Notes: generated by a model not told the origin, from the letters alone. Positions 312 through 35,917 are shown, numbered from the stretch's first letter. The stretch is DNA of 64,000 nt from an uncultured Holophagales bacterium (GCA_963842525.1 CAWJGT010000020.1:72511-136510), one strand, 5' to 3'. Made by a program: numbers and translations.

Positions 312-388
312 GCGGCTATAGCTCAGGTGGACAGAGCAGGAGTTTCCTAAACTCTTGGTCGGGGGTTCGAGTCCTCCTAGCCGCACCA
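312..388 (+). tRNA. tRNA-Arg(CCT)
   Basis: Acceptor stem GCGGCTA/TAGCCGC, D arm TAGCTCAGGTGG, anticodon loop TT-CCT-AA in stem GGAGT/ACTCT, T loop GGTTCGAGTCC, encoded 3' CCA. Confidence 0.95.
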
Positions 389-1246: not shown

Positions 1247-2533
<1,287 letters not shown>

Positions 2534-28749: not shown

Positions 28750-29387
28750 AGACCCTCCTCGTGATGACCCTGGTTGTCCTGACGTCCCCGGCTCTGGGTG
28801 CGCCGGCCGACCCCCGCTCCCTGGAGGTTCTGCGGTACGACTGCGCCAGCGAGCTCGGACGGCGGGAGGTGACCCTGTTCGGCAACGGCACCATCCGCCT
28901 GCGCGAGGGTCCGCTGGGCAAGGAGCTGATGGGGCTGGCGGAGCTCAACCCGGACGAGCGGGAGGGCGCGGTGAACCGGCTGAAGGCCGAGGACCTGTCC
29001 GAGGCGAAGCAGCTGCCGAAAGGCCTCGAAGGGGCCTGGATCGAGAAGTGTATGCTGGCTCTCCAGCTTCCCGGCCAGCCGATTCAGGTGTTCCACTTCG
29101 GGCGCTATGACACCCTGCCGCTCGGGATCTCGCGGGTGGTCCAGGTCGCGCAGGACCTGGCCGCAAAGGTGCCGGCTCTTAAAGGGGACGAGGAGCTTCC
29201 GCACGACTACGAGCCGAAGGAGTGGGACGTGCTGAAGCGGGTCGACGGCTACCCCTACCGGGTCGTCGGCTTCACCTGGGACGGCCAGGGGATCGAGATG
29301 CTGGGGCTGGAGCAGCCGATCACGCTCTTCGTGCGCAAGGACCAGCTCCGCAACGAGTTCGTGGCCGTGCTGTCGAGAGGCCGGTGA
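28746..29387 (+). CDS. hypothetical secreted protein
   Basis: GTG start overlapping the previous stop, signal peptide, operonic spacing with rsmD. Confidence 0.65.
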   Translation: MKTLLVMTLVVLTSPALGAPADPRSLEVLRYDCASELGRREVTLFGNGTIRLREGPLGKELMGLAELNPDEREGAVNRLKAEDLSEAKQLPKGLEGAWIEKCMLALQLPGQPIQVFHFGRYDTLPLGISRVVQVAQDLAAKVPALKGDEELPHDYEPKEWDVLKRVDGYPYRVVGFTWDGQGIEMLGLEQPITLFVRKDQLRNEFVAVLSRGR

Positions 29388-29941
29388 AGCCGGGGGTCCG
29401 GGTCACCGGGGGGGCGCACCGCGGGCGCGGCCTCGCCGTGCCTCCAGGGGCGCGGCCGACCGAGGGGAGGGTCCGCGAGGCGCTCTTCTCGATCTGGGGC
29501 GACCGCCTGGAAGGTGCGCGGGTCCTCGACCTCTTCGCCGGCAGCGGCATCGTCGGCCTGGAGGCCCTGAGCCGGGGCGCGCTCTCGGCCCTCTGCGTCG
29601 ACGAGAGCCTGCGGGCGGTCCAGATGATGGAGCGCAACGCCGGGCTCCTCCAGGAGAAGGCCGCCGAAATCCGCCGCCTCACCCTGCCCGCCGGCCTGGC
29701 GCGTCTGGTCGCGGAAGGCGCCGGCCCGTTCGACCTCGTCTACATCGACCCCCCCTATAATTTCAATCTATATGACGAGCTGCTCGCCGCCCTGGCGCCA
29801 CTCCTGACGAAGCACGCCGAGGTGGTCGTCGAGCACTCCTCGCGGCGGGACATGCCGATCCAGGCAGGACCGCTGGTCCGGGTGGATGCGCGACGGTATG
29901 GGGAAGGCTCGCTGAGCTTCTATCGCTGGGAGCCAAGGTAG
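29384..29941 (+). CDS. rsmD: 16S rRNA m2G966 methyltransferase
   Basis: RPT..RVREALF, LDLFAGSG, DPPY, RYG motifs. Confidence 0.93.
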   Translation: MKPGVRVTGGAHRGRGLAVPPGARPTEGRVREALFSIWGDRLEGARVLDLFAGSGIVGLEALSRGALSALCVDESLRAVQMMERNAGLLQEKAAEIRRLTLPAGLARLVAEGAGPFDLVYIDPPYNFNLYDELLAALAPLLTKHAEVVVEHSSRRDMPIQAGPLVRVDARRYGEGSLSFYRWEPR

Positions 29942-29958: not shown

Positions 29959-31674
29959 ATGACACCTGAACGGCTCCGGCAGCTCCTTGGCGGCGAGTCC
30001 CTCGAAGTCGAGTACAAAAGCGAGCGGAGAGGGCCATTCAACGACCGGGATCTGGTCGAGGCAGTGGTCTGCCTGGCCAATCGGCCGGGAACTGGAACCG
30101 GCTACCTCCTCCTCGGAGTGGAGGACGATCGCCAGGTGACCGGCGCCAGACCCCGGCACGAAAGCGGTCGGCGGACCGATCCTCTTCTCGTACAGACATT
30201 GATCGCTCACCGGACCAGCCCCTCCCTCATCTGCCGAGCCGAGGTGGTGCCGGTTGAAGAGCGCGAGGTTCTGGTCATTGAGGTACCGGTCTCAGCAGTG
30301 CCGGTCTGCACCACTGACGGAACCTATACGAGGCGAAGGCTCGATCGGCAGGGGCGGCCGGAATGTGTCGCCTTCTCTTATCACGACATGCAGACGCAGC
30401 GGGCCGACCGGGGTCTCCTCGACTACTCTGCCCAGGTTGTCCCCGAAGCGCGGTGGGAAGATCTCGATCCCCTGGAATTCGAGCGGTTTCGCCGTAACAT
30501 CCGGGAGAGCGTAGGGGTCGGAGATCGCGCCCTCGATGAGTTGCCGGACTTGGAACTCGCCAAAGCTCTGGGGGCTGTGGAGGCGAACCATGAAGTCCGA
30601 GCGATTCGGATCCTGGGTCTGTTGCTCTTCGGCACCCCTGAGGCGCTCGGCAAGTGGATCCGCCCCTATGAGGTTGCCTTTCAGGTGCTTTCCCCTCAGG
30701 TCGAGGTCAACGACTTCTTCCACTGGCCGTTGCTGCGGGTGATCGACGAAGTCCTCACCCGCTTTCGTGCCCGCAACCGGGAGGATGAGATCTTCGCCGG
30801 ATTCCAGCGAATCGGAGTTCCCAGCTACTCGGAAATCGCTTTCCGCGAGGCCGTGGCCAACGCCCTCATTCATCGAGATTACACACGCCTCGGCGCAGTC
30901 CACATTCAATGGTGGCCGGATCGGATCGAAATCTCAAACCCCGGAGGGTTTCCTGAAGGCGTCCGGCTCGACAACCTGCTCGACACTACACCGCGGCCCC
31001 GGAACCCGCTCCTGGCAGACGCTTTCAAGCGAGCCGGAATCGTGGAGCGGACGGCCCGCGGCATTGACACGATCTTCTATGAGCAGCTTCGGAATGGACG
31101 GCCGGAGCCTGATTATGGGAGGACTTCCTCGACGAATGTCGTCCTCGTCCTCCCCGGAGGCGCCGCGGATCTGGCTTTCGTCCGCCGGGTCGTGGAGCGA
31201 GGCCTCGCCGGTGAGCGGCTGGGCCTGCCTTCGCTCCAAGCGTTCTGGCAGGAATGGCAAGGAGCCAAAGCTCAATCCTCGCCCGAGCGCCTCTTGGAGC
31301 CCACCGGTGAGGATGGGCTGATCATCATCTCCATTGGAGGCGAATCCATTCGGCCGACTGTCGAGGCATCCCTTGAAGAGTTGGGTCTTCATCCAGCCCT
31401 CGTTCTCGTCGACTTCCACTCCACCGAATACGTGGCGCCGGAAAGGAGGGGATGGGAGGCGGAAGCACGGCAGATCCGGAATCTCGTCAAGAGCTTCGTT
31501 GAAGACCCCCGCGTCTCGCGCCTCCACCTCTTCTATCGCGGGCCCGTGGTCCTGGCCCCTTTGCTCGGGGCCTTGATTGCACCCGTCAAGCCTCTGATCG
31601 TCTATTATTACCAGGACGGCGGCTACCGGCCGGCGTACACCTTGAACAGGAGGTTCCTCATCTCCAGAGATTGA
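29959..31674 (+). CDS. AlbA_2 (Schlafen-like) + HATPase_c_4 (RecG C-terminal-like) protein with C-terminal SAVED-like module
   Basis: GESLEVEYKS...CLAN...GYLLLGVED; REAVANALIHRDY, ISNPGG, PRNPLLA; tail LHLFYRGPVVLAPLLG...VYYYQ..GYRP. Confidence 0.8.
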   Translation: MTPERLRQLLGGESLEVEYKSERRGPFNDRDLVEAVVCLANRPGTGTGYLLLGVEDDRQVTGARPRHESGRRTDPLLVQTLIAHRTSPSLICRAEVVPVEEREVLVIEVPVSAVPVCTTDGTYTRRRLDRQGRPECVAFSYHDMQTQRADRGLLDYSAQVVPEARWEDLDPLEFERFRRNIRESVGVGDRALDELPDLELAKALGAVEANHEVRAIRILGLLLFGTPEALGKWIRPYEVAFQVLSPQVEVNDFFHWPLLRVIDEVLTRFRARNREDEIFAGFQRIGVPSYSEIAFREAVANALIHRDYTRLGAVHIQWWPDRIEISNPGGFPEGVRLDNLLDTTPRPRNPLLADAFKRAGIVERTARGIDTIFYEQLRNGRPEPDYGRTSSTNVVLVLPGGAADLAFVRRVVERGLAGERLGLPSLQAFWQEWQGAKAQSSPERLLEPTGEDGLIIISIGGESIRPTVEASLEELGLHPALVLVDFHSTEYVAPERRGWEAEARQIRNLVKSFVEDPRVSRLHLFYRGPVVLAPLLGALIAPVKPLIVYYYQDGGYRPAYTLNRRFLISRD

Positions 31675-31691
31675 AGAGGTCAGGGATGGCT

Positions 31692-31979
31692 TGACACAAG
31701 GCCCTCCGTCGCGCGAGCGGCGGATGCAAATCGGGTGAATTGCCGGAAAGCCCGGGGACGGGTCACCGGCAGCCAAGGCCGGCATGGAGGATCGCGATCC
31801 GAGGGGCTGGCAAGGTTCAGAGACTAGGACCCGAGCGAAAGCGGTAATGGTCCCACGAGCGCCCGACGCCTCCCTCGGGAGGCGATGAGATAGTCCGTTC
31901 TACCGACATGATCCGGTGTTTCTTGAAACGGTAGAAGCCGGGGATAAAGAGCCTCGGCGGTAACAAACCCTGGCTAAAG
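31692..31979 (+). ncRNA. group I intron-like ribozyme without evident host gene
   Basis: P element AATTGCCGGAAA, Q ACCGGCAGC, R GTTCAGAGACTA (31815-31826), S GAGATAGTCC (31887-31896); P3 TCGGGTG/CGCCCGA; P1, P2, P8, P9 helices visible; 3' end uncertain (G31972 or G31979). Confidence 0.85.
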
Positions 31980-32048
31980 TTCCCAGGACCTCTTCAGCGG
32001 CAGCTCATTTTTTCGCCTGACCGGATAGAATCCCCCTCGCCAACGGTC

Positions 32049-34732: not shown

Positions 34733-35917
34733 ATGCCTGATTCGGTGACCGTGAGGAGCAGTCAGTCGTGGTTTTCCCGCATCGGCGGGTCGATCAAGAG
34801 CGTCCTGGTCGGCCTGCTGCTGTTCGTCGCCTCCTTCCCGATCCTGTTCTGGAACGAGGGCCGGGCCGTGCGCACCGCCAAGAGCCTGGAGGAGGGCGCC
34901 GGAGCGGTGGTCAGCGTGCCGGCGGACGCGGTCAATGCGGCGAACGCCGGGAAGCTGGTGCATATGAGCGGCGCCGTAGCAACGGACGCGCCCCTGGTCG
35001 ACCCGGACTTCGGCGTCCAGGCGTCCGCGGTCAAGCTGATCCGGGACGTCGAGATGTACCAGTGGAAGGAAAACGAGAAGTCCGAGACCAAGAAGAAGCT
35101 CGGCGGCGGGGAAGAGACGGTGACGACCTACACGTACGAGAAGGCCTGGTCGTCCGACACCATCGACTCGGCGAGCTTCCAGGAAACCTCCGGGCACGAG
35201 AATCCGGGGAGCTTCCCGGTCCAGGCCAACACGGTGGTGGCCGATCCGGTCCGGCTCGGCGCCTTCCAGCTCTCGCCCGAGCAGATCGACAAGCTCACGG
35301 ATGCGCAAGACCTGCCGGTCAACGATGCCATGGGCGAGGCGATCCCCGAGCCGATGCGGGAGCAGGTCCAGGTGAGCGGCGGGGTCTTCTACATGGGCGA
35401 GAACCCGTCCTCGCCACAGATCGGCGACGCGCGGATCCGCTTCCGCGTCGTCCGGCCGTCGACGGCGAGCGTGGTGGGCGTCCAGACCGGGAGCACCTTC
35501 GCGCCCTTCCAGGCCGAGGCAGGAGATGCGGTCCTCCTGGTGGAGGAGGGTACCCACGGCGCGGCCGAGATGTTCCAGTCGGCCCAGGACGCCAACAAGG
35601 TGATGACCTGGATCCTCCGCGCGCTCGGCTGGTTCCTGATGTTCATCGGCCTGACGATGGTCTTCCGGCCGATCTCGGTCTTCGCCGACGTGGTCCCCCT
35701 GTTCGGCACGATGCTGGGCGCCGGTCTGGGGATCTTCTCCTTCCTGATCTCCGCGGCCCTCTCGATCCTGACGATCGCCGTCAGTTGGCTTTTCGTCCGG
35801 CCGCTCCTGGGGATCACATTGCTGGTGGTGGCCGTCGCCGCCATTGTCTGGCTGGTGCGGCTCGGCAAGAAGAAGAAAAAGGCGCGGATGGGGGCGCCGG
35901 TAGTGCAGACGGCGTAG
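34733..35917 (+). CDS. TMEM43 family membrane protein
   Basis: LFWNEGRAV, KLIRDVEMYQWKE, C-terminal TM bundle TWILR..GW. Confidence 0.88.
   Translation: MPDSVTVRSSQSWFSRIGGSIKSVLVGLLLFVASFPILFWNEGRAVRTAKSLEEGAGAVVSVPADAVNAANAGKLVHMSGAVATDAPLVDPDFGVQASAVKLIRDVEMYQWKENEKSETKKKLGGGEETVTTYTYEKAWSSDTIDSASFQETSGHENPGSFPVQANTVVADPVRLGAFQLSPEQIDKLTDAQDLPVNDAMGEAIPEPMREQVQVSGGVFYMGENPSSPQIGDARIRFRVVRPSTASVVGVQTGSTFAPFQAEAGDAVLLVEEGTHGAAEMFQSAQDANKVMTWILRALGWFLMFIGLTMVFRPISVFADVVPLFGTMLGAGLGIFSFLISAALSILTIAVSWLFVRPLLGITLLVVAVAAIVWLVRLGKKKKKARMGAPVVQTA

Follow-up and report, generated by a model that had tools for sequence, protein, structure and literature searches.

The stretch of DNA analyzed here (the window) comprises 64,000 nucleotides from an uncultured Holophagales bacterium and carries a gene for an AlbA_2/Schlafen-HATPase_c_4-SAVED protein, the 3' UTR of which contains what is almost certainly a real group I ribozyme. 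Judged from its sequence, the ribozyme has a complete set of catalytic elements and sits in the loop of a hairpin that occupies 31671-31997 (Table 1). The N-terminal part of the protein matches AlbA_2 (50.1 bits, Pfam), and the C terminus matches SAVED models from Pfam (PF18145; 27.8 against a cut-off of 26.2) and NCBIfam (NF033611; 40.7 bits against a cut-off of 33), as well as the SAVED and pAgo-associated models of PADLOC. Only the C-terminal half of the SAVED profile is matched, over a stretch of about 125 residues that corresponds to one CARF-like unit. Comparison with the PDB gives the Cap4 SAVED entry 6vm6 at residues 347-461 (E 3.9e-5) and entry 3lmm (E 5e-19), and the family profile also matches CbCash, 9ylu (E 2.6e-5). 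An E..VEWK motif, a candidate for the catalytic acidic/lysine motif of Schlafen-type nucleases, appears in the family consensus.

The full ribozyme extends from 31688 to 31979. The Rfam model RF00028 (Intron_gpI) matches 31652-31915 with 55.9 bits against a gathering score of 50 (E 1.7e-11), bearing out the preliminary description of a complete group I core, and each element listed there was recovered within 1 nt of where it had been placed. The Rfam alignment puts P1 within the end of the coding sequence; the homologs instead favor the P1 given in Table 1. The minimum free energy (MFE) fold recovers the enclosing clamp, P1, P2, P3-P6, P8, P9, and P9.1, with a z-score of -3.2 that none of 100 shuffles equaled. 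The U.G wobble expected at the 5' splice site is confirmed and is kept in 20 of 20 homologs, as well as in L080-L082. At the other end, a conserved G closes a ...GCUAA(A)G motif exactly where homology to the relatives ends (at 31977-31984 of the window) and is the candidate omega-G from sequence comparison. The candidate 3' splice site has two options in loci L006 and L007 and is ambiguous in L029 and L039. The GCU of this motif is retained in 23 of 23 homologs, as GGCU or CGCU, and in the window this second copy of the tetramer could act as a 5'-exon mimic by pairing with the internal guide. A P10 helix was rejected: read by eye, at most two to three unconserved pairs connect the 3' exon starts to the guide.

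Table 1. Features of the SAVED gene and the ribozyme in its 3' UTR (positions in the window; protein domains in residues).
Feature	Position	Strand	Details
Upstream gene	29959..31674	+	571 aa; stop codon TGA at 31672-31674
Domains of the encoded protein	AlbA_2/Schlafen 13-127; HATPase_c_4 313-392; SAVED-like C-terminal unit ~445-565
Outer clamp, 5' arm	31671..31681	+	Overlaps stop codon; 11-bp uninterrupted helix with 31987-31997
Inner clamp, GGGA	31683..31686	+	Pairs with TCCC at 31981..31984
P1 hairpin	31688..31703	+	31688-31692 with 31699-31703; U31691.G31700 wobble
5'-exon tetramer GGCU in P1		+	Final 4 nt of the 5' "exon"; 5' splice site directly 3' of U31691
Ribozyme proper	31692..31979	+	288 nt: P2, P3-P8 core with P3/P7 pseudoknot, P7.1, P9, P9.1, 3' tail
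Internal guide AGGCC	31699-31703	+	GGCU/GGCC almost invariant among homologs
P2	31705-12 with 31717-24	+	GCGA closing loop
P3	31731-36 with 31861-66	+	
P4	31741-46 with 31766-71	+	
P5 and P6/P6a			Likewise found in the window ribozyme
P7	31820-26 (5' strand) with 31891-96	+	Bulged A31821
Guanosine-binding pair	G31822 with C31895	+	In P7, beside bulged A31821
P7.1	31827-31 with 31849-53	+	
P8	31867-73 with 31878-84	+	
P9	31898-905 with 31929-36	+	
P9.1 (further hairpin)	31937-43 with 31952-58	+	
Second copy of GGCU	31972..31975	+	4 nt 5' of the proposed omega-G
3' tail end		+	GGCU (31972-75)-AAAG motif; proposed omega-G is G31979
Outer clamp, 3' arm	31987..31997	+	In the MFE fold

Across 20 homologs, 96.4% of the cells in 13 helices are paired, and 27 of 74 pairs show compensatory changes on both sides, compared with 3-7 in slid controls (0 of 500 shuffles). 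This covariation backs the P3-P8 core with its P3/P7 pseudoknot; P7 itself is invariant (6/6 pairs in 20 sequences) and therefore gives no covariation evidence of its own. The ribozyme-first homologs were collected with a 34-nt exact pattern and carry that ascertainment bias. Three relatives found protein-first score 59.8-65.5 bits against RF00028. Several conserved peripheral motifs, among them the P9.1 loop and UAACA, are shared with the unrelated group I ribozymes at locus L074; they provide no argument for a protein-binding role.

That the sequences flanking the ribozyme pair with each other had been proposed from the window alone, where they form an 11-bp helix, and comparison among loci extends the proposal. 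Each locus has its own complementary arms, 6-16 bp long, with a sequence that differs in every lineage. Cognate flank duplexes have a mean energy of -26.9 kcal/mol versus -19.4 for permuted ones (sd 0.96; 0 of 20,000 permutations as low), and 19 of 20 loci have at least five flank-flank pairs in the MFE fold. These comparisons mark the enclosing stem as a real, selected feature that covaries across loci. The flanks amount to a hairpin alone, in agreement with the idea that splicing would leave only a hairpin behind. The claim that no tRNA, rRNA, or coding host is interrupted also stands: no tRNA was found at the locus and no Rfam family on the flanks, the one other Rfam family in the whole window being a distant tRNA. 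Nor does the element contain any ORF of homing-endonuclease character, as the preliminary description had noted.

The element shares the architecture of bacterial tRNA introns, being small, free of any ORF, set in a hairpin loop, and devoid of P10, and one genome of the order carries an ordinary tRNA-Leu intron (L003). The flanks could on this basis be the decayed remnant of a host gene, for example a tRNA with the clamp as its anticodon stem. The 12-45 nt between stop codon and GGCU are too short for a tRNA 5' half, however, the arms are lineage-specific in sequence yet still complementary, and the flanks gave no tRNA call or Rfam match, making such an origin extremely improbable. The resemblance to bacterial tRNA group I introns of the cyanobacterial tRNA-Leu(UAA) type is still close, as these are also ORF-less ribozymes of ~230-300 nt in a hairpin loop, with a stem that joins the splice sites, a weak or absent P10, and a U.G pair at the 5' splice site. 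Here, in contrast, the host is a lineage-specific 6-16 bp hairpin in the 3' UTR of a SAVED-linked mRNA, and the window ribozyme has an additional, invariant P7.1 and the 3' GCU-AA(A)G tail.

The ribozyme had also been described as free-standing, a term that does not fit its distribution, as across phyla it is inherited jointly with the upstream gene's SAVED-like C-terminal domain. Ribozyme and domain occur together in Acidobacteriota, Myxococcota, Actinoplanes, and one "Proteobacteria" MAG. Among 18 loci found ribozyme-first, 17 have an ORF homologous to the C terminus of the window protein, ending 12-45 nt before GGCU, and no other neighbor gene is conserved. A protein-first search of 300 genomes from the order found the ribozyme with the SAVED part at seven of seven loci and with the N part alone at none of 22, both counts being among the matches listed (150 of 357). 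Genome G165 contributed just a weak match to the N part, on which none of these conclusions depends. The closest homologs of the N part (64-66% over residues 1-417) have wHTH C termini and, again among the matches listed, no ribozyme. In 351 genomes of a myxobacterial class, all three new strong protein matches are followed by a ribozyme and clamp that the DNA pattern had missed earlier. The Actinoplanes locus encodes a 210-residue protein with HTH_3 and SAVED-like domains, followed by the ribozyme. Part of the link to the SAVED portion could simply reflect that this portion lies next to the ribozyme, at the gene's 3' end.

Ribozyme and protein also diverge together (Mantel r 0.89, a value that 0 of 10,000 permutations reached). 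Protein C termini with 29-96% identity are accompanied by ribozymes with 72-98% identity, an indication of purifying selection on the RNA, which interrupts nothing. We consider it very probable that the SAVED gene and the ribozyme constitute a selected module.

The same loci bear on whether the ribozyme is instead a selfish, ORF-less intron that entered a 3'-UTR hairpin of an ancestral SAVED gene and has hitch-hiked without function ever since. Bacterial and phage group I introns are mobile elements (PMC3984707); GGCU is repeated at both ends; and the distribution is patchy, as one of 251 Actinoplanes-family genomes has the ribozyme (G683, which was the query; 0 of the 250 others), and so do two of 401 genomes in a phylum sample. 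Intact copies exist where the gene is gone (L028) or reduced to a remnant of 74 codons (L037), and decayed fragments lie at L013 and L014. The two gene-less copies show no excess of unique substitutions (two in L028 and one in L037, within a range of 0-4), and their intactness means that persistence of the ribozyme may not depend on the protein. Yet an intron that interrupts nothing would be under no selection to keep splicing, and here the core is invariant, with the 27 compensatory pairs distributed over four phyla and alongside proteins of down to 29% identity. There is one ribozyme copy in the window genome (G000) and in each of five other host genomes, with no spread to other sites, and the element has neither endonuclease nor transposase. 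Phage, viral-contig, and plasmid collections yielded no match to the ribozyme, the ribozyme and protein trees agree, and, among the matches listed, the ribozyme follows every strong SAVED-subfamily member recovered by the protein-first route. A selfish origin without function is improbable in this light, and the earlier suggestion of an ORF-less mobile intron that targets hairpins conflicts with the single copy, the near-constant gene context, the lack of any match in the phage and plasmid collections, and a ribozyme divergence that tracks that of the protein. IStrons, which combine a group I ribozyme with an IS200/605 transposon (PMC4227781), offer a parallel in that ribozyme and protein gene form a stable partnership outside the intron-endonuclease pairing; their transposase lies inside the element and they occur in many copies per genome, whereas here the SAVED gene lies upstream and the copy is single.

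The ribozyme may alternatively function as a cis-acting 3'-UTR device in which cleavage, splicing, or circularization sets the fate of the SAVED mRNA and the excised RNA is a by-product. The spliced mRNA would keep a protective hairpin; if cleavage were not followed by ligation, the 3' structure would be lost and 3' exonucleases would gain access to the message. Melting of the 5' arm by ribosomes that terminate at the stop codon could couple the choice to translation. In keeping with such a device, the ribozyme always begins a short distance past the stop codon, where it would be co-transcribed, and it is kept with genes of differing N-terminal domains. Several loci have terminator-like hairpins 3' of the 3' arm. 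The overlap of stem and stop codon, which the preliminary description had emphasized, was confirmed in part: in the window and in about eight of 18 loci the 5' arm overlaps with or directly adjoins the stop codon, whereas in 10 of 18 a gap of 10-25 nt separates the stop from the arm downstream of it. Several further observations argue against cis control. The loop of the ligated hairpin ranges from 4 to ~17 nt with no conserved size, and no sequence beyond GGCU is conserved; a plain stem-loop would stabilize the mRNA without a 290-nt catalytic RNA; and at L028 and L037 the ribozyme is intact with no gene to regulate. We regard this explanation as rather unlikely.

A precedent for cis control exists in Clostridioides difficile, where a group I ribozyme in an mRNA 5' leader forms an allosteric unit with a c-di-GMP-II riboswitch; the aptamer gates the ribozyme, and the choice of splice site builds a ribosome-binding site. 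There too, a group I ribozyme in a non-coding region of an mRNA is maintained for its service to a gene, not as a neutral intron. The window ribozyme differs from it in lying in a 3' UTR, in having no aptamer detected with Rfam, and in having no downstream gene in common among loci. This last difference also removes the proposed leader switch for a downstream gene, as the downstream genes differ between loci. To our knowledge, this is the one regulatory exception to the view of bacterial group I ribozymes as selfish introns that reside in tRNA, rRNA, and protein genes. The GIR1 lariat-capping ribozymes of eukaryotic rDNA twin-ribozyme introns (PMC4167309), which provide the 5' end of an mRNA with a 3-nt lariat, also use a group I-derived fold to process an mRNA end rather than to splice gene exons; GIR1 has lost splicing, while the window RNA retains every splicing element, with G31979 as its candidate omega-G.

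RNA from relatives is represented in seven metatranscriptomes, in which 5-6% of sampled words (shares 0.05-0.06) matched, all from relatives' ribozyme cores. These matches derive from relatives and not from the organism of the window, and are uninformative on expression of the window locus or on habitat. Record 3 of run X2 (304 nt, depth 8) is permuted: it corresponds to 31891-31967, then 12 letters, then 31699-31915, and its two ends overlap to form a closed cycle of ~274 nt. Record 2 of the same run is likewise permuted. In the permuted contig, the 3' GGCU runs directly into the P1 loop, and the GCU-(A)AAG tail is absent. The cycle is probably a circular RNA of a relative, read from assembled contigs of one metatranscriptome run, and lends some support to the circular product that had been envisaged. 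It may also reflect head-to-tail tandem copies, library DNA, or template switching by reverse transcriptase at GGCU. Tandem group I arrays do exist in DNA, as at L074, and a scan of JGI metagenome contigs for permuted junctions found none of this ribozyme family, the sole match being that unrelated array.

Circles made by ribozymes and accumulating in cells have been described before, both as full-length circular group I intron RNAs (PMC6274462) and from permuted group II introns (PMC8637638). The classical circle is closed at omega-G; the junction in the relative's contig falls at the GGCU common to both ends, and its 5' side lacks a G.

Considered together, these findings suggest that the ribozyme is a functional component of the SAVED gene and not a stray intron. 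On balance, we lean toward an obligate self-excising RNA that acts as partner or regulator of the SAVED gene. According to this model, the SAVED-like C-terminal unit and the ribozyme would be a two-part module, inherited and horizontally moved as a unit. The ribozyme would be co-transcribed with the gene, and the covarying flank stem would bring the two splice sites together, much as the anticodon stem does for tRNA introns or as P10 does elsewhere. Guanosine would attack 3' of GGCU (after U31691), and the RNA would be excised at the G of ...GCUAA(A)G, putatively G31979, leaving the mRNA with a plain hairpin cap. The excised RNA of ~285 nt would then accumulate, probably as a circle closed at the GGCU common to both ends, and this RNA rather than the ligated hairpin would be the selected product. 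It would work with the SAVED-like sensor encoded on the same transcript, as a bound partner or a regulator. Self-excision in vivo is likely. That the RNA acts together with the protein is a realistic prospect, though short of an even chance, and control of the mRNA purely in cis is somewhat unlikely.

Throughout the existence of the neighboring SAVED-domain gene, a complete ribozyme that interrupts nothing has been kept by strong purifying selection, and it crosses phylum boundaries with that gene. This implies a cellular use of group I catalysis, be it for a defined and possibly circular RNA or for control of an mRNA end. The ribozyme is also a candidate non-cyclase partner for an orphan SAVED sensor. 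Should the RNA circle prove real, the element would be a compact natural self-circularizing cassette.

The domain architecture of the protein recalls Cash- and Cap4-type effectors, in which a Schlafen or nuclease domain is fused to a CARF/SAVED-like sensor (PMC13462974); both join a Schlafen/AlbA_2 domain to a Rossmann-like nucleotide sensor. Those effectors are activated by cyclic oligonucleotides from a nearby Cas10 or CD-NTase, whereas here the ribozyme is the only conserved neighbor. In the manner of CBASS and type III CRISPR loci, we looked for a cyclase next to the effector and found none. The cyclase search used three models in all (SMODS and Cas10): SMODS had no match in four of five host genomes (G000, G261, G277, and G272), and Cas10 models gave nothing above cut-off in three of five (the window genome G000, G261, and G272).

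One could suppose that in a CBASS- or type III-like signaling pair the place of the cyclase is taken by the ribozyme, with its own RNA product as the signal for the SAVED-like domain encoded on the same transcript. Such a signal could be the GGCU-closed circle or a short A-rich oligonucleotide freed when the circle forms. The idea is quite improbable; if true, RNA catalysis would be generating a signal in immunity or regulation, and this would be the first case of a group I ribozyme that acts in trans in the cell. In its most specific form, the transesterification would release or cyclize a short oligonucleotide, for example the A-rich tail from GGCU to omega-G, as the SAVED ligand, and the ribozyme would stand in for the missing CD-NTase or Cas10 cyclase. 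The alignment of the SAVED-like unit with Cap4 SAVED, the cyclase search results, and the conserved GCU-(A)AAG tail that is missing from the permuted contig are all compatible with this. Against it, the spacer between the 3' GCU and the terminal G varies by locus (AA, AAA, CGA, or AAAAA), the protein has just half a SAVED domain, and we know of no group I reaction that yields a 3-6-nt circle. Supply of a ligand by the ribozyme is thus very improbable.

Systems such as retrons, DRT9, and type III toxin-antitoxin loci similarly pair one protein gene with an adjacent structured RNA as a unit; none of these RNAs is known to be a group I ribozyme, and any defense role at the present locus would be putative. 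In the literature searched, we found no group I ribozyme linked to SAVED/CARF genes or placed in a 3'-UTR hairpin, though supplements may list such cases; no paper there combines the SAVED domain with a group I intron, and two 2026 preprints on non-coding-RNA mining mention neither. No defense island was seen in the window context or around the Actinoplanes locus. The upstream neighbor of the window gene is rsmD, and the neighbors in Actinoplanes are chemotaxis receptors.

All of the ribozyme helices lie inside the 374-nt gap that separates the stop codon of the SAVED-type gene (31672-31674) from the next ORF (32049). The match to RF00028, the Rfam group I model, and a single tRNA are the only Rfam families in the 64-kb window, and no other group I match occurs in the 9.95-Mb genome. 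Every helix named in the preliminary description is present, no more than 1 nt from its assigned position. Rfam's own alignment puts P1 within the end of the CDS; the relatives favor the P1 proposed earlier (GGCU/U...AGGCC, with U31691.G31700). The minimum free energy (MFE) fold of 31660-32010 recovers the outer stem, P1, P2, P3-P6, P8, P9, and one further hairpin at -151 kcal/mol (z -3.2; 0 of 100 shuffles equally good). The covariance-model score, the P3-P8 core, the guanosine-binding site in P7, and the U.G in P1 all gave positive results in tests for a group I ribozyme, and there is a candidate terminal omega-G. ARAGORN calls no tRNA at the locus. The ribozyme does not interrupt a host gene, and the tests for a mobile group I intron were negative.

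Features of the module and its surroundings in the window
Feature	Position	Strand	Remarks
tRNA	312-385		Rfam match
RsmD-like 16S rRNA methyltransferase	29222-29941		Upstream of the module; 142 bits
Upstream gene	29959-31674	+	AlbA_2/Schlafen, HATPase_c_4, C-terminal SAVED-like unit
RF00028 match	31652-31915		55.9 bits (gathering score 50, E 1.7e-11)
DUF3592 and TMEM43-family genes	34733-35917		Downstream of the module

At the DNA level, a search of 300 same-order genomes returned full-length matches of 80-87% identity in eight genomes of three families, plus two fragments and some weak matches of very short length. Searching contigs from one genome per species with an exact 34-nt core pattern gave 20 records (the 8 known loci, 11 new ones, and 1 fragment) from Acidobacteriota, Haliangium, Polyangium, two Actinoplanes, and a 'Proteobacteria' MAG. 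When a hand-written group I structure was scored on an alignment of 20 distinct ribozymes, 96.4% of cells were paired, and both-sided changes appeared in 27 of 74 pairs versus 3-7 with slid partners (0 of 500 shuffles). P7, including its bulged A and G-C pair, is invariant in this alignment, and all 20 ribozymes have the 5'-splice-site U.G. Homology to the window begins at ≈31688 in distant relatives and ends at 31977-31984 in every relative, which fits a 3' splice site after G31979, within the conserved ...GCUAA(A)G. Because of this structural support and these boundaries, the RNA is, on comparative sequence grounds, a complete group I ribozyme of 280-340 nt. At two loci, L006 and L007, the 3'-terminal motif is doubled (...GGCUAAG, 8-9 nt, then UGGCUAAAG), giving two candidate 3' splice sites, with the 3' arm of the clamp after the second. 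Decayed fragments of the family occur at L013 and L014 (=L033), both without a SAVED gene; one consists of the 3' 120 nt and the other of ≈100 nt of the P7-P8 region, and one of the two comes from the genus to which the window's genome belongs.

At every locus the ribozyme is flanked by a locus-specific pair of complementary arms, which form a helix of 11 bp in the window, 14 bp in L008 and L035, 12 bp in L081, and 16 bp in L082. Cognate 5'/3' flank duplexes average -26.9 kcal/mol, versus -19.4 (sd 0.96) for permuted flanks, and the cognate mean was reached in 0 of 20,000 permutations. When folded with 36-nt flanks, 19 of 20 loci have at least five flank-flank pairs in the MFE structure. The stop-codon overlap of the 5' arm that had been described is seen in the window and at ≈8 of 18 loci; elsewhere the stop lies 10-25 nt further upstream. 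Since the arms lie 0-10 nt from the splice sites on both sides in most loci, splicing would leave a hairpin with a loop of 4 to ≈17 nt, of which GGCU is the only part kept. No conserved P10 was found among the loci, and the clamp stem presumably does the job of P10, a role that falls to the anticodon stem in tRNA introns. In Rfam's alignment of 31656-31686, the last CDS codons (the RRFL motif region) pair with the 5' arm and linker, and similar partial complementarity is seen in L008; such pairing could be a competitor of the clamp before the 3' arm has been made or ribosomes have passed. Perfect GC-rich hairpins found 10-40 nt past the 3' arm in L023, L029, L039, and L009 likely terminate transcription of the module. 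In the window there is instead a T-run (32011-32016) with no obvious stem.

Starting from the ribozyme, the ORF ending 12-45 nt before GGCU encodes a homolog of the window protein in 17 of the 18 loci examined, and no other neighboring gene is common to them. In the exception, L028, ribozyme and clamp are intact and follow an unrelated gene at a distance of 45 nt, and in L037 the gene is reduced to its last 74 codons. Both ribozymes are intact, with no excess of odd substitutions, and count against strict dependence of the ribozyme on the protein. Starting from the protein in the 300 same-order genomes, the HATPase_c_4 part matches at least 132 genomes. Among the matches listed (150 of 357), the SAVED part was found at seven loci plus the window's own; the ribozyme is present at all seven and at none of the 22 fetched loci that match the N-terminal part alone, and the closest N-terminal homologs have winged-helix ends and no ribozyme. 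The partner gene in the two Actinoplanes encodes a 210-residue HTH_3 + SAVED-like protein. Because these proteins come with the ribozyme and the winged-helix homologs do not, the constant pair is the SAVED-like unit and the ribozyme. A profile of this unit finds a single copy in each of five non-acidobacterial hosts, no match among 250 further Actinoplanes-family genomes, one weak match in 400 genomes sampled across the phylum, and three new strong matches plus one weak in 351 genomes of a myxobacterial class. Immediately downstream of each strong match lies a group I ribozyme (59.8-65.5 bits) that has P1, the clamp, and the GCU-AAAG tail and had been missed by the 34-nt pattern; the weak matches L073 and L083 have no ribozyme downstream. 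Pairwise identities of the ribozyme (72-98%) and the protein C terminus (29-96%) are correlated (Mantel r 0.89; 0 of 10,000 permutations as high). Phage, viral-contig, and plasmid collections gave no match to the module. From its linkage, copy number, and co-divergence, we therefore regard it as rare, patchy, and single copy, inherited or transferred as a unit.

The SAVED-like unit scores 27.8 with Pfam (cut-off 26.2) and 40.7 with NCBIfam (cut-off 33), aligns to residues 347-461 of Cap4 (6vm6), and has SAVED domains without exception as its Atlas neighbors. Residues 1-417 of the window protein (29959-31209) are 64-66% identical to AlbA_2-HATPase_c_4-wHTH proteins in two same-family genomes (L043/L044), and the closest matches to its SAVED-like end are in another genus (41-45% over residues 288-571). 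This suggests a chimera in which a wHTH tail was replaced by a SAVED + ribozyme cassette. The Schlafen part resembles Cash, a nuclease that is activated by cA4 and cuts the T-loops and anticodon loops of tRNAs (PMC13462974); the window protein is a putative nuclease. No defense island was seen around the module in the window, where the neighbors are of housekeeping type.

Seven metatranscriptome runs from seven studies contain 5-6% of the sampled words. In the four compared with the window, coverage is confined to 31688-31980, and the matches are relatives' ribozymes with 85-95% likeness. A 304-nt contig from run X2 (depth 8) reads 31891-31967, then 12 letters ending ...GGCU and a short loop, then 31699-31915. 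The contig begins and ends with an identical stretch of ≈30 letters, so it forms a closed cycle of ≈274 nt in the 31-mer graph; a second X2 contig is permuted in the same sense. GGCU occurs in every family member before the 5' splice site and again 3-6 nt before omega-G, the proposed terminal G31979. Because the L081 genome encodes a P1 reading GGCU then A, the junction is best placed at the shared GGCU. The cycle is consistent with an RNA circle that spans the first intron base through the 3' GGCU, unlike the classical group I circle, which closes at omega-G. In one possible route, the 3' GGCU would mimic the 5' exon by pairing with the internal guide, guanosine attack would free it, and it would then reverse the first splicing step at the 5' end of the intron. 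The cycle may instead derive from tandem DNA copies, library DNA, or template switching at the repeat. No permuted junctions of this family turned up when metagenome contigs were scanned by pattern. In a second run, X5, a contig extends past 31980 into unrelated sequence, so a relative's precursor or DNA is present there.

Three facts must be explained jointly: purifying selection on a ribozyme that interrupts nothing, coupling to one sensor-domain subfamily, and flanks conserved only as a stem. The selection is strong and the coupling strict, whatever the fusion partner. A neutral hitch-hiking intron is expected to decay, and a mobile one to occur in more copies and contexts. Because the three facts disagree with both expectations, we consider the ribozyme a functional part of the gene. 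It would be co-transcribed with the SAVED gene and excise itself with the help of the clamp, yielding an mRNA that ends in a hairpin and an excised RNA that is probably circular. A credible if tentative proposal is that the excised RNA works with the SAVED-like domain, either bound to it as a partner or serving as a regulator or antitoxin-like RNA; the last-made protein domain and the RNA adjoin on the transcript. That the ribozyme acts purely in cis on the fate of the mRNA is somewhat less likely. No SMODS or Cas10 cyclase scored above cut-off in the window's genome and two other hosts, which leaves the sensor without a known ligand source in these three genomes; a bolder and improbable idea is that the ribozyme itself supplies the signal.

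In build, the nearest systems are tRNA introns; in logic, they are lariat-capping ribozymes, single-gene-plus-RNA defense modules and, reportedly, the C. difficile allosteric ribozyme. Full-text literature searches yielded no group I ribozyme tied to SAVED/CARF genes and none hosted in a 3'-UTR hairpin, and two preprints searched by term mention neither. Other group I elements were also met. In a same-order genome (L003, ≈1440-1760, minus strand), an ordinary tRNA-Leu(UAA) gene is split by a group I intron that scores 41.9 bits with RF00028, below the gathering score, and goes uncalled by ARAGORN in default mode. An AT-rich 3.6-kb metagenome contig (L074, 1-3629) carries seven same-strand RF00028 matches tens of bases apart, five above the gathering score (50.9-91.5 bits), and three ORFs inside or between ribozymes, two with weak HNH-like matches. 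With no tRNA call or rRNA match, it resembles an array in which mini-exons separate group I ribozymes. Its P1 hairpins directly follow the preceding unit's 3' tail, and its ribozymes have the P9.1 loop and the UAACA motif in common with the window ribozyme family.
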